Source: a virus. From it: 64,000 bases of DNA. A model generated the notes under the pieces. That model did not search any database. It saw only the letters and a list, made by a program, of their open reading frames with translations, and had not been told where the DNA came from. Within the stretch, counting starts at the first letter, position 1, and every line of letters starts with the position of its first letter. The DNA lies in IMG/VR virus record IMGVR_UViG_3300046673_000114, positions 16,484-80,483 of that record; one strand, 5' to 3'. The position numbers were made by a program, and so were the translations under genes. Below, in pieces: positions 37,213-48,188 of this stretch.

Positions 37213-37797
37213 ATGAGCGAAATAAATACTAAGGATAATCCTTATTTCATTCGTGAAGAGGAAGTTTCGTTAGACAAGCTTAAGCCTAACGAGAAAAACC
37301 CGCGAAAGCATCCCGAAGACCTTATAAAACGATTAGTCGCGAGTATAAAAGAATTCGGTAAGACCATGCCGATGATTGTCGACGAGGATTATAATATCAT
37401 TGCGGGTCACGCGCGGCTTAAAGCAGCGCAGAGAATGGGCTTAACAACCTTTCCGGTTAGAGTATTCAAGTTTCCGGCCGGAAAGGATAGGGCGTATCTA
37501 ATTGCCGATAATAAACTAGCCGAGATGAGTGAGTGGGATACCCCTCTTTTAGCAGATATGTTCGAAGAGCTATTAGAAGCAGGTATTCATCTCGATATAA
37601 CCGCGTTTACCATAGAGGAACGCGATGAGATTATGGCCGAGCCTATGATGGCTCCCGATAGCGAATTCGGCGCGGGAGAAAAGGACTTCGTTATAGTCTC
37701 CTTTAGAATGACGAAGGACGAATTCGAGTTATATAAAGCTGATGTTGATGAGTTCATAGGAAAAACCAATTTAACGCCCCACATACAGGAGATATAA
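37213..37797 (+). CDS. ParB/Srx N-terminal domain protein
   Basis: LKPNEKNPRKH, SIKEFG, IIAGHARLKAA and IADNKLAE. Confidence 0.9.
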   Translation: MSEINTKDNPYFIREEEVSLDKLKPNEKNPRKHPEDLIKRLVASIKEFGKTMPMIVDEDYNIIAGHARLKAAQRMGLTTFPVRVFKFPAGKDRAYLIADNKLAEMSEWDTPLLADMFEELLEAGIHLDITAFTIEERDEIMAEPMMAPDSEFGAGEKDFVIVSFRMTKDEFELYKADVDEFIGKTNLTPHIQEI

Positions 37798-38174: not shown

Positions 38175-38789
38175 GTGCGGCCGGAAGAAATAATGAAATC
38201 AATAAAAAAAGAAAAGAGACTAACTAAAAAAGAGCAGCTTCAAAAAAGAAGATATGATTTTTGGAGACTTATGTCTCACGGCGCAACTCTAGCCGACGCC
38301 GTTAAGATGATTTCAGAGAAATACGGTGTCGGTAAAGCCGTTTTATATAGCGATTGGGCTAAACGAGAGGAATGGGGTGTCGTCGAGGAACCAGAGAAAA
38401 ATAGAATAGTAAAAGATGGTCTGTTTTCATTACAAGAAACAAGACGTTATCTTTGGAATCTTATTAACGCTTCACCAGAACAGCTTAACGAAGACGGGGT
38501 ATTAGTCGACTCTCGAGGCGTGCCGATGTGGCCGTTTGAATTACCAGATGTTAAGTTAAGAGCTACTACGATAGCGAAGATTATAGAAACAGATTTCGCG
38601 GTTATCCGAATGACGCAAAGCATAGGCATCGTTCCGCAAAAGGGAATGACTATTTCTATGTTATCCGAAAACTCTGCTGAAATAGAAAAGAACCTAGACG
38701 CGTATTGCGGTGACGATGTAGAGCTAAAAAGAGCGGTATTAGTCGCACTCGATACGATGGCGAGGGGTGTAAGTGGCGAAGACTCCTAA
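38175..38789 (+). CDS. Terminase small subunit candidate
   Basis: N-terminal HTH (ISEKYGVGKAVLYSDW); overlaps the terL ATPase gene. Confidence 0.55.
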   Translation: MRPEEIMKSIKKEKRLTKKEQLQKRRYDFWRLMSHGATLADAVKMISEKYGVGKAVLYSDWAKREEWGVVEEPEKNRIVKDGLFSLQETRRYLWNLINASPEQLNEDGVLVDSRGVPMWPFELPDVKLRATTIAKIIETDFAVIRMTQSIGIVPQKGMTISMLSENSAEIEKNLDAYCGDDVELKRAVLVALDTMARGVSGEDS

Positions 38790-39651
38790 ATACACACTAA
38801 AGAAAAGACCGCGCGGTAGGCCGCGTAAAGAGAAACCGGCAGCGAAAGAGAAGAAAGAATACTCTACCGATGCAGTTCGTTATCTAAAGTATAAGATGGC
38901 CCCGGACGTGTGGGTAGAAGAAAACTATGATATAACGCTCGATTCGTGGCAGAAAGAAGCATTAAACACCCAATCGAATCGCCTACTACTTAATTGTTCA
39001 AGACAGGCGGGAAAATCGACCGTTGTTTCTCTATTAGCGCTACACCATGCGTTATTTACACCTAAAGCATTAGTCCTCGTCGTCTCACATACGGATATTC
39101 AAGCGAAAGAAACGTTTAAGAAAATAGCCGATAGCTTCCACGACCTAAAGACCGAATGGTATAAAAGCGAAGTAGACACCGTTTATGAGATTAGGTTTAA
39201 CAATAAAAGTCGTATCATAGCACGAACGGGACAACAACCAGATAGCTTACGAGGGTATAGTGGTGTTACGCTTTTAATCATCGACGAAGCTGCATCAGTT
39301 TTAGAAGAAAGTTATATGGTTCTTAAACCAATGCTTGCCGTCTCGAAAGGAAAGGTAGTTTTGCTTTCTACGCCTAAAGGTAAACGAGGTTTCTTCTATG
39401 ATGCGTATAAAGACGCGCACGAGAATAACCGAGAGAGCTGGCATTACTTAGAAATAAAAGCCGACGATTGTCCTAGAATCACGCAAGAATACTTACTAAG
39501 TGAAAAAGAGCGCAATCCCGATTGGGTATTCGAGCAAGAATACTATTGTGTCTTCATTTCGAATGTGAGCAACATTTTTCCAAACGTTGCCGACTTATTT
39601 ATAGAAATGCCCCTAGACGACCACTGGTCATTCGATTTAGACTTGGATTAA
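38773..39651 (+). CDS. Terminase large subunit, ATPase domain only
   Basis: WQ motif, SRQAGKS, LIIDEA, LSTP, FEQEY; ends before the nuclease domain. Confidence 0.9.
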   Translation: MAKTPKYTLKKRPRGRPRKEKPAAKEKKEYSTDAVRYLKYKMAPDVWVEENYDITLDSWQKEALNTQSNRLLLNCSRQAGKSTVVSLLALHHALFTPKALVLVVSHTDIQAKETFKKIADSFHDLKTEWYKSEVDTVYEIRFNNKSRIIARTGQQPDSLRGYSGVTLLIIDEAASVLEESYMVLKPMLAVSKGKVVLLSTPKGKRGFFYDAYKDAHENNRESWHYLEIKADDCPRITQEYLLSEKERNPDWVFEQEYYCVFISNVSNIFPNVADLFIEMPLDDHWSFDLDLD

Positions 39652-39687: not shown

Positions 39688-40308
39688 ATGGATAAAAAAG
39701 AGTACCAAAAGCAGTATCGAGCTAGGCATAGAGATAAGCTAGCCGAGTACAGCAAGCGGTACTACGCCGAGAACAAGGATAAATTTGCTAAATTAAATAA
39801 GCAATACCGCGAAGAGCATAAGGAAGAGTTAGCTGCTAAGGCAAAAGAGTACAATAAGCATTACTACGTTGAGAATAGAGAGCAGGTACTAGAGCGTTCG
39901 AATAAATGGAAAGCCGAGCATAAAGAAGAGTTAAAAGTAAAGTCTAGAGAATATTATCTTAAGCATTACGAAGATACGTTAAAATGGAACGTCGAGCATC
40001 GAAAGAAAAAAGCAGAAATCGCTAAACGTTATCGTGAGACTCTTAATAAACGAGTAGAAGAGATTAGTCCTAATATCTGTTTTTTTAATGACGAACACGC
40101 TTGTAGAAGTCGTAAAGGCTGGAAGCTAGACCTACACGAAAAAAGTGGAAACGGTCATAATAAATGGGCCGTTAGGATTATTCTCGACGATACATCGAAA
40201 GCTAATGATTTTGTACGCTTATGCTCAAAACATCACGATATGGTACACGCTTTAATGGAGCTAGGCCGAACGTGGGATGAGATAGAGACGTTTATTAACA
40301 TATGTTAA
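39688..40308 (+). CDS. Divergent HNH-type endonuclease
   Basis: Basic helical repeats + LDLHE...VRLCSKHH..VH; own TATA box. Confidence 0.6.
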   Translation: MDKKEYQKQYRARHRDKLAEYSKRYYAENKDKFAKLNKQYREEHKEELAAKAKEYNKHYYVENREQVLERSNKWKAEHKEELKVKSREYYLKHYEDTLKWNVEHRKKKAEIAKRYRETLNKRVEEISPNICFFNDEHACRSRKGWKLDLHEKSGNGHNKWAVRIILDDTSKANDFVRLCSKHHDMVHALMELGRTWDEIETFINIC

Positions 40309-40800: not shown

Positions 40801-41283
40801 ATGAAACAAGAAGACGCCTATAAAATCGCCGAGAAACACTGCACAGGGATTCGGTGGGACGGAAGCCCGTCAATCAGTCACATAAGACGAACCGCGCAGC
40901 TCACCGAGGACATAGTTAGGGACGTTTTTAACGAAGACTATCTTAACGTAGTTAAATGCGCGGCGATACTTCACGACGTGATTGAGGATTGTTTAGATAA
41001 AGATGAGTTTGATAACTCCGCGCTTGACGATGTTATAATTTTTGACGACGTACATAGCGGGTTATTAGAGATAGTTTCTACACTTACACATCGTAAAGAT
41101 GAACCTTATGAGAACTATATTAGTAGAGTTATTAATTCGCCCAATCTAGCCCCAACGTGTATTAAAATAGCCGATATGATAGATAACTTAACCTCTAAAG
41201 GTGTAACCCTAAAGCAGCAGGCTAAGTATCGGAGAGCGCTACCGCGGTTAATTAAACGAATGTCTGGATTAGAAAAGAGGTAG
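40801..41283 (+). CDS. HD-domain hydrolase (SpoT/MESH1-like)
   Basis: H....R..G.P...H, AAILHDVIED, LT, IKIADMIDNL. Confidence 0.85.
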   Translation: MKQEDAYKIAEKHCTGIRWDGSPSISHIRRTAQLTEDIVRDVFNEDYLNVVKCAAILHDVIEDCLDKDEFDNSALDDVIIFDDVHSGLLEIVSTLTHRKDEPYENYISRVINSPNLAPTCIKIADMIDNLTSKGVTLKQQAKYRRALPRLIKRMSGLEKR

Positions 41284-41284
41284 A

Positions 41285-42546
41285 ATGAAAGCTCTTTGTC
41301 ACGTTTCGTATGAGCTAAAACCTAAAAAACCGTCACTAGCCGCCGGAAAAGTATTCGGTAGCTTTGGGTTAGACTCGGAACAGGGTAAGCGCGAGTATGT
41401 GAAACCATTCACTCTCGAGTTTAAAGAGAGAGACATTATTGCGTTTGTTGGCACCTCTGGAACTGGTAAAACAACCTGCTTACAGCAGCTAAAAGCGCAA
41501 ACGCTCGGGCTCGACCTAAACGAGTTAGTTTTCGATAATGATAAAACCGTTATAGAACATTTTAATGATTATGACGTTGGGCTAAAGAACCTAAGCATTT
41601 GTGGTCTAGCCGAAGCGCAACTTTTTATGCGGTATCCATTCGAGCTAAGCGACGGGCAAAGGTATAGGTTTAGAATGGCTCTCGGGCTTAGCGATAAACG
41701 AAACGTGTTAGTGTGCGATGAGTTTCTAGCCACGTTAGACCGGATAAGCGCGAAAACTATTGCGTTTAGCATTAGAAAACTAATTTCGAATAGCGATAAA
41801 ATCTTAGCGATAGCCACCACACACGAAGATATTCTCGAAGACCTGCAACCGAACATAATCGTTAATTTCGGCCCCGAAGGCGTAGAAATCGCGAATAAAG
41901 AGATAATTAAAAAAAAATCTCATTTTATAATAATCTCGTCATTGCACGGGGCTCTAGAGCAGATTGGAACCGGTTTAGTAAGTGGCACTACCGAGGAAAA
42001 GAAATAGGTTTTTTGAAGTATGCGTATATCCTCATTCACGATGACGAACCGATTGCCTTCTGTGGCTTCTCACCACCGGGGCTCGCAAACTCAGTTAGAA
42101 TTCGTATTTTTCGCGGTAGCTATAAGAAAATGACGACACGAACGGCAGAAATCATTAATTCTAGGTTTATAAACCTAAGTCGTATCGTTATCGACCCTAG
42201 ATATAGGGGTGCCGGAATTGCTAGTGATTTCGTTAAAGCGTGCTGCTTATATGATGATTTAGTAAAAGAGCGATTCATCGAACTTATTACCTCGATGGGA
42301 CAGATAAATCAATTCTGGAAGAAAGCCGGATTTAAAGACTACGGGCAAACGATGAGCGACACCATCGGCGGAACAGTTTCAATCGGCGGTGCTTCGCGAA
42401 AGAAGAAAGCAAAGACCGGGCAACATAATTGGCCCCACGAGAATCAGGGTGGACACGTTCGCTCAGAAACGAAAGCTCAAAGTAAGTTGGCGGTCATGAG
42501 ATACTATCTACTCGATATAAAGAAGGCTAAAGGAGAGAATAAATGA
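41285..42546 (+). CDS. ABC-type ATPase - GNAT (Mom-like) fusion across a -1 slip at A9 (41909-41917)
   Basis: GTSGTGKT, LSDGQ, CDEF; the -1 frame continues DWNRFSKWHY...SRIVIDPRYRGAGIA. Confidence 0.75.
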
Positions 42547-42791
42547 TAAAAATATATTCACTGCCGGTATGTCCGAATTGTAAAGTATTAAAAACCACCT
42601 TAAAAGAACGTAACATTACGTTCGAAGAGGAAGAACTCGGAACACCCAAAGTAAAAACAGAAATGCTTATGCACCACGTTTTTACAGACATGGCACCAGT
42701 ACTTCGTGTTGATGATAAATATTATACCTCTATAGAAATCTTTAATGAAAAAGGAGATGTAAAGGTAGACATACTAAATACGCTATCGTAA
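42543..42791 (+). CDS. Glutaredoxin/NrdH-like protein
   Basis: IYSLPVCPNCKVLK...APVL. Confidence 0.85.
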   Translation: MIKIYSLPVCPNCKVLKTTLKERNITFEEEELGTPKVKTEMLMHHVFTDMAPVLRVDDKYYTSIEIFNEKGDVKVDILNTLS

Positions 42792-43176: not shown

Positions 43177-45304
43177 AAAAATCCGCGAGAGAATAGTATG
43201 TGGATACTACACGACACGACATTTACCTTTTTTGATGATGTATTTATTTTTAGTAAAGCGTTCGAAGTAATAGGCCGCCCTAGTTACGTGATTCTTCATT
43301 GGCAGAACGAAAATATTGCACATTCGATTGTTGATGAAGAGTCATATCGACAAACAAAGGATAAATTACATAATTTAGCTAAGAGATTGCTATCGAGAGA
43401 TTTATGGCAAATGGCTGATTATCATAAAGCGCTTGCTAGGCCGATTATAACGCCCGAAGTCGTTGAAAGACTAGAATCGCTTGTAGGCACGCGCATATAT
43501 CGAGACTTAGTCACAGGCATAGAAACGCGCGAAGCCTACTACGGTGAAAAATCGCGAGGGAAAAGATATGACTAAACTAATAATTAGCATAAGTGATGAA
43601 AACATAGCGTGCTGGGAAGAATATAAACTAGATTTAGCTTATGAAGCGCGAAGATGGGCCGAAAAAAGAGAAGTTAAGCTCGGTAAAATAATAATAACCG
43701 ACGATGAAGCTATCTCGGGACTTTTCGACTGCGTAGAAGAGGAAGGAATTTTCTGTTGGGACCTTCTATGGAAAATCGTAGAACGAAATGCTTTAGAAGG
43801 CGAATTAGAGCCACAATAACGAAAAATCCGCGCGGGAATAACATGCCGAATTGTAAAGATTGTGAAAATAACGTATTACCTAACTATTGGCCTCCGTGTG
43901 CGTTTAGCGCGCCTAAGAACATAAAGATGCACGATAAAGAGTGTTCAAAATTTACTCCTATGAAGTTTCCGCATACCTTTTGGCGCGGAATGTCTCATGG
44001 CGGCTGTTACATCATAAACGAAAAAAGAGAGGTCATAAACGACATTAAATTCGGCCCGTATGACTAAAAATCCGCGTGTGAGAAGAAATGACTAACGAAT
44101 CGTTTGATATAATAACAGAAATTAAATACGCCGACCGTATAACAGGGGATATCGTCGAATATGCTAAAGGCATGGACTCTACAGGAAAAATACATTATTT
44201 CTTATTAGAACCGATGGGTACTAAAACTCGCTGGACTGAATTAAACGAATATGCCTATGAGAAAAATAAATTCGATATGAAAGATTTATTTATGATTGTT
44301 CCGAACGAAATAAACCACGTAAAGACTCTCTAGACTAAAAAATCCGCGTGTGAGATGAAATGACTAACGACACACAATTTATTATAAAAACATTCCATAA
44401 CGATAGTGTGTATATTAACGACGCTATAGACTTAGAAATATCCGACGTAGGCGAATACGACCTTTTAGCCTTAATGAGATTAATCATAATAGAACTAGAG
44501 ACTCGGCATCTAATCCCGCAAGATATGGCGTATGAATACTAAAAAATCCGCGAGTGAGCTAAACGATGATTAAAAAGTCTAAACGAACCGAAACTAAAGA
44601 AGTCGAGGACGTTACCTACATCTGCGACCGCTGTGGTAAGGCGGCAAAACGAGGCAATTATACTCCCGCACTTCGAGAATGTTGCATATGTGGTCGGTGG
44701 ATTTGTCGTTCCTGCGCTATCGGTTTTGACTCACTTGAATACGAGGGGTATGCTTATGACCGCCCGTATTATCGTGCCTGTCGTGAATGTTTAGATGCTG
44801 GCGATTATAGGCAACGAATAAAAGAAGCACAAGAAAACGCAGATATGATAAAGGCCGCTGTTTTAAAAGAATGGAGAATGGCGTCTAAAGTGAAAAATTT
44901 CGCGAGAGAGTAGAATAATGAGCCTAAGAGAAGTACCATGTATCACCTGTAACTATAACATGGAATATTACACTCGTAGTAACGGAAGACTAGAACACTG
45001 TGGAGCGAAATGTCTTCGATTAAGAAAAAGGAGAGCCGTGTATCTAAAAAACAATGGTTGGGTTTGTTGGCATCGTAAATGTGGCCCGAATCAACTAGAA
45101 ATCGATAAAAGAAGGCTATAGCGCCTCTAGACCCTAAAAAATTCGCGCGTGAGTAGAATAATGAGTAAATGGAGAAACAGATTAAAGAACGAATACGGTA
45201 AGAGTATATTATTATGTTGCTATGATAGGATTCTCTCTAATGAAGAATTAGCTAAACACTACATTAAAGTTAGAAATGCTGTTAACGTATATTGGCTATC
45301 ATAA
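43177..45304 (+). repeat. Eight consecutive small genes, each preceded by an AAAAAT(C/T)CGCG-like motif
   Basis: Motifs near 43177, 43547, 43822, 44066, 44338, 44542, 44893 and 45137; ATGs at 43198, 43568, 43843, 44088, 44360, 44566, 44918 and 45161. Confidence 0.9.
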
Positions 45305-47432: not shown

Positions 47433-48188
47433 ATGCCACGTAGAGCGCCAATTTGGGGTCTTGAACATCTTTCAGATGATGAATACAAGACATCTTTAGA
47501 GGGTCGATATAAGGATAGAGAACTCCCGACAGAAGCCACACTAAAAGCGCGTAAGGAAAGCCAAGAGAAACGCGAAAAAATAGTTATAGTTGGCATAGAC
47601 CTCGGAAAGGAGGTTGATGCAACTGTTTTAGCCATCGTCGAACCAACCGAGAACTACGAAAATCCTATTTATCTAGTGCACAATGTTATCCCCGTCCGCT
47701 TAGGGACAAGTTACGCAACGATAATAAGTAGTGTTGCGGCACTCGACGAACAGCTTCGTCTCCGTAAGAACGCAATTGATGTTAAGTACGTAGTAGACGC
47801 CGGGGGTGCGGGGGGCGTCGTCGATAGTCTCGAAGAAGCGCTGCCTAAAGCGGATATTTATAAGGTGCATATAACCTCGGGGTACGAATCCACTATCCAT
47901 GATGATTTTAAAATCGGGCTCCCTAAACGCGAGTGGGTCACCACCCTTAAAAAAGTATTAGAAGCGAAAAGAGTTAGGTTTCATTATATCGACGACGACG
48001 GTAGAAGAGATTCGGGGATGAGACTCTTAGAAAACGAAATTAACAATTTTCAGATGAAGATTTCTCAAACGGGATACGATAAATACGAAGCAAGTAGCGG
48101 ACATCACGACGACGCGGTTCAAGCATTAGGGTTAGCCATCTGGTTCGGCGAGCGTGAAGCGGGGCGTGGGCCGTTACGAATATGGTAG
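47433..48188 (+). CDS. Terminase large subunit, RNase H-like nuclease domain as a separate gene
   Basis: VGIDLGKEVDAT, LGTSY, VVDAGGAG and GHHDDAVQAL. Confidence 0.88.
   Translation: MPRRAPIWGLEHLSDDEYKTSLEGRYKDRELPTEATLKARKESQEKREKIVIVGIDLGKEVDATVLAIVEPTENYENPIYLVHNVIPVRLGTSYATIISSVAALDEQLRLRKNAIDVKYVVDAGGAGGVVDSLEEALPKADIYKVHITSGYESTIHDDFKIGLPKREWVTTLKKVLEAKRVRFHYIDDDGRRDSGMRLLENEINNFQMKISQTGYDKYEASSGHHDDAVQALGLAIWFGEREAGRGPLRIW

Follow-up and report, generated by a model that had tools for sequence, protein, structure and literature searches.

A conserved run of nine adenines as a probable programmed recoding site between the ABC ATPase and GNAT domains of a phage gene family

We report here that a run of nine adenines (A9) at the linker between an ABC ATPase domain and a GNAT acyltransferase domain is very probably a conserved site of programmed recoding - at the level of either transcription or translation - within one gene. 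The gene lies in a window of 64,000 nucleotides, the whole stretch of DNA analysed here, which belongs to an 80.5-kb IMG/VR viral contig that CheckV rates as ~48% complete. Standard decoding would yield a 240-aa ABC ATPase and a fraction of expression events is predicted to enter the -1 frame at the run, giving a 420-aa ABC-ATPase-GNAT fusion, so that both products would be made in some ratio. On balance, our analysis leans towards slippage of RNA polymerase on A9, with one A being added to some transcripts as in Thermus thermophilus dnaX, as the more likely route.

Results

Anatomy of the gene

The zero-frame ORF (41285-42007, plus strand), whose ATG is preceded at 5 nt by an AGAGG Shine-Dalgarno-like motif, encodes ATPase residues 1-211 and then a tail of 29 out-of-frame residues (the 29 codons between A9 and a TAG), which together make up the short product of 240 aa. 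A9 itself (41909-41917, plus strand), the only run of nine in the window, forms Lys codons 209-211 of this ORF, and the letters at 41906-41920 are ATT AAA AAA AAA TCT, just as an earlier sequence-only reading of this DNA had described. Inside the run, the heptamer A_AAA_AAA (41911-41917, plus strand) is in phase. In the -1 frame, T 41908 and the first two A's form a TAA (41908-41910), and the frame opens at 41911, within the run. From 41917 it reads ISF...DWNRFSKWHYRG and is stop-free to 42546, a stretch of 209 aa (P0001; 41917-42546, plus strand) comprising the GNAT acyltransferase domain and a C-terminal extension. The claim that this frame runs open into an ORF at 42013, which itself can only start at a TTG, proved correct in both parts: the first ATG, GTG or TTG of the frame is the TTG at 42013-42015 (plus strand), its sole mechanical start, and none occurs between 41911 and 42013. 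Initiation there would remove 32 conserved, structured residues, and TTG 42013 is probably not a functional start. By AlphaFold model and alignment, the part without a start codon of its own (41917-42012, plus strand) supplies beta1 and alpha1 along with the conserved residues D16, W17, H24 and Y25. The -1 product is reachable solely by a -1 shift or by one extra A in the mRNA, and an extra A and a -1 ribosomal slip result in the same polypeptide; accordingly read, the whole recoded gene (41285-42546, plus strand) would encode 211 + 209 = 420 aa with the junction ...EIIKKK-ISFYNNL...

ATPase and GNAT domains

Pfam assigns the ATPase ORF to ABC_tran (E 1e-8), and a PDB profile search with it returns ABC nucleotide-binding domains at E values down to 2e-20, with resemblance to transporter-type and ABCE1-type proteins. 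Alignments of homologues show that Walker A, the LSDGQ signature, Walker B and the H-loop are all present, with G56/S58/G59/G61/K62, L121, S122, G124, Q125 and D145/E146 being invariant and D123 and H180 conserved in at least 90% of sequences. For the -1 ORF, Pfam returns a GNAT (Acetyltransf_7, E 5.8e-6) and, in an alignment of 54 GNAT halves, the acyl-CoA-binding R-x-x-G-x-G/A loop is retained (YRGAG, with R97 and G100 invariant). No variation is seen at H24 and Y25, and D16 and W17 occur in at least 90% of these 54 sequences, all four residues lying upstream of TTG 42013. In the AlphaFold model of the GNAT (pLDDT 85.5), strand 7-11 corresponds to beta1 and helix 14-23 to alpha1, both at pLDDT ~97. 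With the ATPase first, both domains match phrog_11143 (357 positions) in order and spacing, its positions 35-193 aligning with the ATPase half and 205-294 with the GNAT half; to become one polypeptide here, they would need the predicted -1 shift.

The sequence-only reading saw an ABC ATPase joined to a Mom-like acetyltransferase. While Pfam bears out the ABC ATPase and the GNAT, membership in the Mom family did not stand: identity of the GNAT to phage Mu Mom is 9%, and a profile of the 54 GNAT halves searched against PDB sequences (E up to 10) listed 32 GNATs and did not retrieve phage Mu Mom. Foldseek with the GNAT model gave near-tied GNATs, with TmcA, NAT10 (PDB 2zpa, 9aym) and Mom (PDB 8bv8) all in the top ten. 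'Mom-like' is a fold-level resemblance by a thin margin and not family membership. Mom modifies adenine at N6, and its catalytic residues include the Ser that is mutated in 8bv8. For GNATs coupled to an ABC ATPase, Iyer, Aravind and colleagues predicted an acyl modification system for a DNA base that is distinct from Mom proper (PMC7824862).

Gene neighbourhood in the window

Proximity to ParB and terminase genes, which the sequence-only reading had named as frequent for this family, is indeed seen: a ParB_N-domain gene (37213-37797, plus strand, E 1.3e-10) lies upstream, as does an ORF of 292 aa (38773-39651, plus strand) holding only the N-terminal ATPase domain of a terminase large subunit (Terminase_6N, E 3.2e-18). 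Among the relatives, 18 loci have a ParB_N-like ORF directly upstream (weak Pfam match, E 7e-4) and 13 have a TerL-like ORF (weak Pfam match). A nuclease domain is matched just once, below the cut-off (Terminase_6C, E 4.4e-5), at 47769-48140 in a 257-aa open frame ~8 kb downstream of the terminase ATPase ORF. Judging from these matches, the terminase large subunit seems to be in two pieces, separated by the HD, ABC-GNAT, glutaredoxin and other small genes. Right after the terminase ATPase ORF comes a Lys/Glu-rich ORF of 206 aa (39688-40308) with a His/Cys-rich C-terminus and no Pfam match; it may represent an insert that resembles a homing endonuclease and has to do with the splitting of the terminase.

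Around the ATPase and GNAT, the genes are packed as in a tight operon. The HD-domain ORF (40801-41283) ends 1 nt before the ATPase ATG (41285), and the ATG (42543) of a glutaredoxin-like ORF (42543-42791, CPNC motif) overlaps the GNAT stop as ATGA. A Prok-RING_2 zinc-finger ORF is found at 44566-44913.

Presence of A9 in DNA and RNA data

Within the 64-kb window (GC 41%) A9 does not exceed chance, with 5 A8/T8 matches against 12.2 expected from shuffles; its significance rests on comparison with relatives and not on the window alone. The run was reproduced by an independently assembled contig from another peat-metagenome run (X15), one that carries no source flag; the contig covers 41587-42546 with 0 substitutions and 0 gaps. 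At full word share, the stretch occurs in 12 peat-metagenome runs (2018-2025), and at a share of at least 0.95 in 16. Contigs from RNA libraries (metatranscriptome; X17-X19) match 41285-41332, 41303-41493, 41642-41817, 42008-42346 and 42226-42419; they end at 41817 and resume at 42008, none spans the run, and such libraries may contain DNA too.

Conservation of the run among relatives

DNA was fetched for 162 related loci and the frame relation of ATPase and GNAT was scored. An A-run exactly at the domain joint, with the GNAT in the -1 frame and within 250 nt of the ATPase, is found at 35 loci including the window, as A9 in 30, A8 in four and A10 in one; L102 and L103 among the run loci are near-duplicates. 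One further -1 locus (L212) came from a later scan and carries ATT-A9 in the same phase, with different flanking codons and an ATPase 72% identical to that of the window. The break proposed by the sequence-only reading is thus conserved in homologues, with A8-A10 at the same joint and the same -1 shift in 35 other loci, 30 of which have exactly A9; their ATPases are 33-72% identical to the window's and their contigs have a GC content of 0.39-0.72. It is extremely improbable that A9 would arise by chance in the contigs of 72% GC. Only two run loci depart from the -1 register, L120 (A8, +1) and L115 (A10, in frame), and the nearest relatives of both have A9. Conversely, 27 of the 28 in-frame fused loci lack any run of at least seven. 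As for the two departures, the in-frame A10 of L115 (2069-2078), which would be 'locked on', and the A8 of L120 (3201-3208) point to an occasional change of the tract at the DNA level or to assembly error.

The run is found in each of the three codon phases (0, 1 and 2 in 14, 6 and 16 loci, respectively). With phase, the residues it encodes vary (KKK, QKK-, VKKK) and the spacer to ISF compensates, yet the nucleotides are kept. Since the same nucleotides are maintained in all three phases while the residues differ, selection appears to act on DNA or RNA rather than on protein. In 28 of the 30 loci of phases 0 and 2 (for example L087:1418, L089:1360, L212:3625 and 41908 in the window), a T immediately precedes the run, even at wobble positions in DNA of 55-70% GC. 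It is never T in the phase 1 loci, where T would create an in-frame TAA. Realignment may be made easier by the weakness of an rU:dA pair at the upstream end of the RNA:DNA hybrid, and the 5' T may represent a context rule for slippage.

At the protein level, a search with the ATPase ORF returned 116 homologues. Many are 240-247 aa long, cover 98-100% of the query at 37-90% identity and end in (V/I)KKK plus a tail of ~30 residues, and others (395-417 aa) run on in frame into ISF...DW..F..WHYR. The same KKK and ~30-residue tail forms the C-terminus of P0002 (90% identity) and P0003 (72%). For P0002, P0004-P0012 and similar proteins, the architecture was read from the protein ends. Neither blastn of the region against GenBank phages nor a single-protein scan of IMG/VR with the ATPase ORF or P0005 gave a match. 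A scan of genome contigs returned mostly generic ABC ATPases, the relevant loci being only L165 and L166, and a DNA pattern scan of IMG/VR (A8, gap, DW...WHY) recovered two chance matches (~30% GC, no open frame) and otherwise just the contigs of L005 and L212. Sources of the run family are labelled as phage contigs, Planctomycetota (L165, Gemmataceae), Alcaligenaceae (L166) and Acidobacteriota (P0003).

Coding frame downstream of the run

Over the first 28 codons past the run, conservation is higher in the -1 frame than in the zero frame, with a mean identity of 0.62 vs 0.51 and a mean BLOSUM score of 94 vs 51 (595 pairs), and the -1 frame is stop-free in 35 of 35 loci. In the GNAT frame, an ATG within 90 nt 5' of the ISF motif is missing from 34 of the 36 run loci and a start codon of any kind from 23; among split-gene relatives, by comparison, such a start exists in 55 of 62 and 10 of 10. 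Because an upstream start is lacking and residues 1-32 are both conserved and structured, a whole GNAT would be made only by entry into the -1 frame at the run.

Run-less, split and fused relatives

In a quick IQ-TREE phylogeny of the ATPase (137 rows), two deep clades separate. One holds all 36 run loci together with 14 fused loci, four heptamer loci and L098, and the other consists of 71 SSU5/nickie-type split-gene loci and 11 fused loci. Path lengths within the run-bearing clade exceed 3 substitutions per site, and the starred branches of the tree require that switches between having the run and any other state took place no fewer than four times. L085 (A10), L086 and the window form a group with a support of 99.

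Four run-less relatives that need the same -1 shift carry in-phase heptamers, namely C_CCA_AAA (L086:2567-2573), G_GGA_AAA (L111:3085-3091), C_CCT_TTT (L116:3130-3136) and T_TTT_TTC (L114:1389-1395). Lying right at the -1 opening, those of L086 and L111 look, as sequences, like true ribosomal sites. L116 and L114 were not counted as evidence, since either could just as well be an otherwise fused gene that lost one base from a short homopolymer. A different state is met in L098 (1402-2057; the same in L099), a member of the run clade in which the run is gone and an ATG has appeared eight codons before ISF, and its GNAT gene overlaps the 3' end of the ATPase by ~260 nt.

Separate genes for ATPase (212-221 aa) and GNAT (293-296 aa) follow ParB-like genes in SSU5, nickie and PhiR41_1, and in nickie the annotated large terminase is just downstream. 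A need for both protein species is plausible given that, in the split and in the slippery versions alike, a free ATPase stands beside a GNAT-bearing protein. ABC ATPases work as ATP-sandwich dimers, and one may envisage a joint action of the free ATPase and the fusion, perhaps as a heterodimer, in ATP-dependent acyl transfer onto phage DNA.

Discussion

Could the break between the two domains be accidental, or could it simply mark the border of two genes? Homopolymers are error-prone and the window DNA stems from metagenome assembly, so a sequencing or assembly error in a true A10, or a recent inactivating mutation that left a pseudogene, might come to mind. However, the contig X15, as an independent assembly, has A9 - hence at the contig level the A10 that the sequence-only reading had named as the mark of a homopolymer error did not turn up - and the same -1 register recurs in L212, the 72% identical relative, and in another 34 loci that were assembled independently. 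Moreover, random indels should produce -1 and +1 shifts in similar number while we see them at 35 to 1, and to our minds an error or a pseudogene is effectively refuted already, with a negligible chance of being the explanation. Separate initiation of the GNAT, with TTG 42013 or a non-canonical codon (ATC 41917, for instance) as the start, would make two genes of the region as in SSU5-type phages; for it speak the separate ATPase and GNAT genes of SSU5, nickie, PhiR41_1 and 71 IMG/VR loci as well as L098 and L099 which, from within the run clade, have an ATG eight codons 5' of ISF. Yet use of TTG 42013 would drop 32 conserved, structured residues including the invariant H24 and Y25, ATG, GTG and TTG are all absent between 41911 and 42013, no ATG is there in 34 of the 36 run loci, and A9 in DNA of 70% GC would be left without a reason. 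We therefore consider independent initiation very improbable and programmed recoding at A9 the reading to be carried forward.

As for how the frame is changed, the sequence-only reading had offered programmed frameshifting, slippage and phase variation side by side. Recoding is supported by the conserved run and its -1 register, and phase variation is disfavoured by a near-uniform 'off' register. Toggling between A9 (off) and A10 (on) through slipped-strand mispairing in DNA replication, so that only a subpopulation of phages makes the fusion, would be in keeping with homopolymers slipping for DNA polymerases too and with the off-register L115 (A10, in frame) and L120 (A8) being nested among A9 relatives. 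Phase-variable tracts, however, normally mix lengths and states, whereas 35 of 37 run loci plus L212 share one 'off' register; A9 also came without an indel in the independent assembly and at full word share in the 12 peat runs from 2018-2025, albeit that contigs lose rare variants. So phase variation strikes us as very improbable. Within recoding, a purely ribosomal route, that is -1 programmed frameshifting of the E. coli dnaX/IS3 type on A_AAA_AAA (41911-41917) in transcripts with A9, is a sub-question; it may replace or add to slippage by the polymerase and we regard it as the less probable of the two. The window and every run locus have the in-phase heptamer, in 12 run loci the classical heptamer of dnaX, A_AAA_AAG, closes the run, and two relatives without the A-run, L086 (C_CCA_AAA, grouping with the window) and L111 (G_GGA_AAA), have in-phase heptamers just past the -1 opening. 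The four A8 loci and the four run-less relatives with in-phase X_XXY_YYZ heptamers would fit as well, and independence of codon phase is compatible with the ribosome since any A9 contains an in-phase A_AAA_AAA. Against a purely ribosomal route, nine A's are held in 30 of 35 loci although seven suffice, and the 5' T, kept in 28 of 30 permitted cases, has no obvious ribosomal role. A 3' structure or a 5' Shine-Dalgarno-like element is usual but not obligatory for -1 programmed ribosomal frameshifting. Stimulatory RNA structure was not found downstream of the run, the 60 nt 3' of it folding no better than shuffles (z +0.94 in the window), and over 35 loci mean z is -0.27 downstream vs -0.35 in the upstream control, so without enrichment; nor is there a GGAGG-like or Shine-Dalgarno-like motif in the 18 nt before the run in the window.

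Taken together, we favour slippage of RNA polymerase on A9 as the likelier source of the -1 product because the length is held at nine where seven would be enough for a heptamer, because the run occurs in all three codon phases, because neither a downstream structure nor a Shine-Dalgarno-like motif accompanies it and because nine is a known slippage length. Indeed, nine A or T are known to be slipped on efficiently by bacterial RNA polymerase, and a 9-base A/T run is used by Thermus thermophilus dnaX (tau/gamma) (PMC5009743; PMC3711429).

A more far-reaching thought, which we put forward tentatively and would not bet on, is that one enzyme family has three interchangeable ways to provide, in a fixed proportion, an ABC ATPase on its own and a subunit with the GNAT: polymerase slippage on T-A9, heptamers for -1 ribosomal shifting (L086, L111) and genes split as in SSU5. 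If this were true, it would imply an asymmetric ABC dimer with a single Mom-like acyltransferase that modifies phage DNA near the time of packaging, and the conserved 5' T would belong to a context rule for transcriptional slippage in bacteria that had so far gone unrecognised.

Textbook cases of recoding are dnaX, prfB, IS elements and phage tail chaperones and, to our knowledge, well-supported recoding sites that are conserved across phyla are few. The site considered here would be both deep and clean, and the enzyme concerned has a predicted role in the hypermodification of phage DNA. While programmed recoding as a mechanism is already known, we found no paper that describes it for the ABC-ATPase-GNAT family in a search outside subscription journals and supplements, and the main texts of Antonov 2013 and Atkins 2016 do not mention the family. 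Gene callers report such a gene as two pieces, an 'ABC transporter' and a fragment that lacks a start, and as a consequence the family is systematically mis-annotated. With A9, A8, heptamer-only, fused and split versions, the relatives also constitute a natural test bed for telling polymerase from ribosomal slippage and for asking why an ATPase-only product is made beside the fusion.

Comparison with known systems

Among DNA and RNA acyltransferases, phage Mu Mom differs from the ATPase-GNAT described here by having no ATPase, and TmcA and NAT10 differ in that their ATPase is of the helicase type (not ABC) and they act on RNA. The ABC-ATPase-GNAT family (phrog_11143, 'ABC-type ATPase with predicted acetyltransferase domain') has the same two domains in the same order and a neighbourhood of ParB-like and terminase genes, and the window is a member of it; the members described are plain fusions, whereas interruption by a slippery run goes unmentioned in the papers searched. 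SSU5, nickie, PhiR41_1 and RHEph10-type phages encode homologous ATPases (32-40% identity) and GNATs (26-30%) after ParB-like genes, but their two-gene version has its own starts, a GNAT of ~296 aa with a longer C-terminal part and no slippery run, and falls into a separate clade.

As regards recoding, E. coli dnaX and the IS3-family transposases shift on A_AAA_AAG or A_AAA_AAA, the same heptamers that are in phase here, and in IS3 OrfAB frameshifting attaches a catalytic domain encoded downstream to the domain before it, as predicted for our gene. Those sites, however, come with a Shine-Dalgarno-like element and/or a hairpin or pseudoknot, none of which is detectable here, and their run of 6-7 compares with one held at nine. 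Like the window, Thermus thermophilus dnaX has nine identical bases in the coding region; as predicted here, it needs no 3' stimulator and gives rise to two products that share an N-terminal ATPase part. The outcome is reversed and the gene family differs: in Thermus, the zero frame specifies the long product and slippage truncates it, whereas here the zero frame specifies the short product and the predicted slippage would add a whole catalytic domain.
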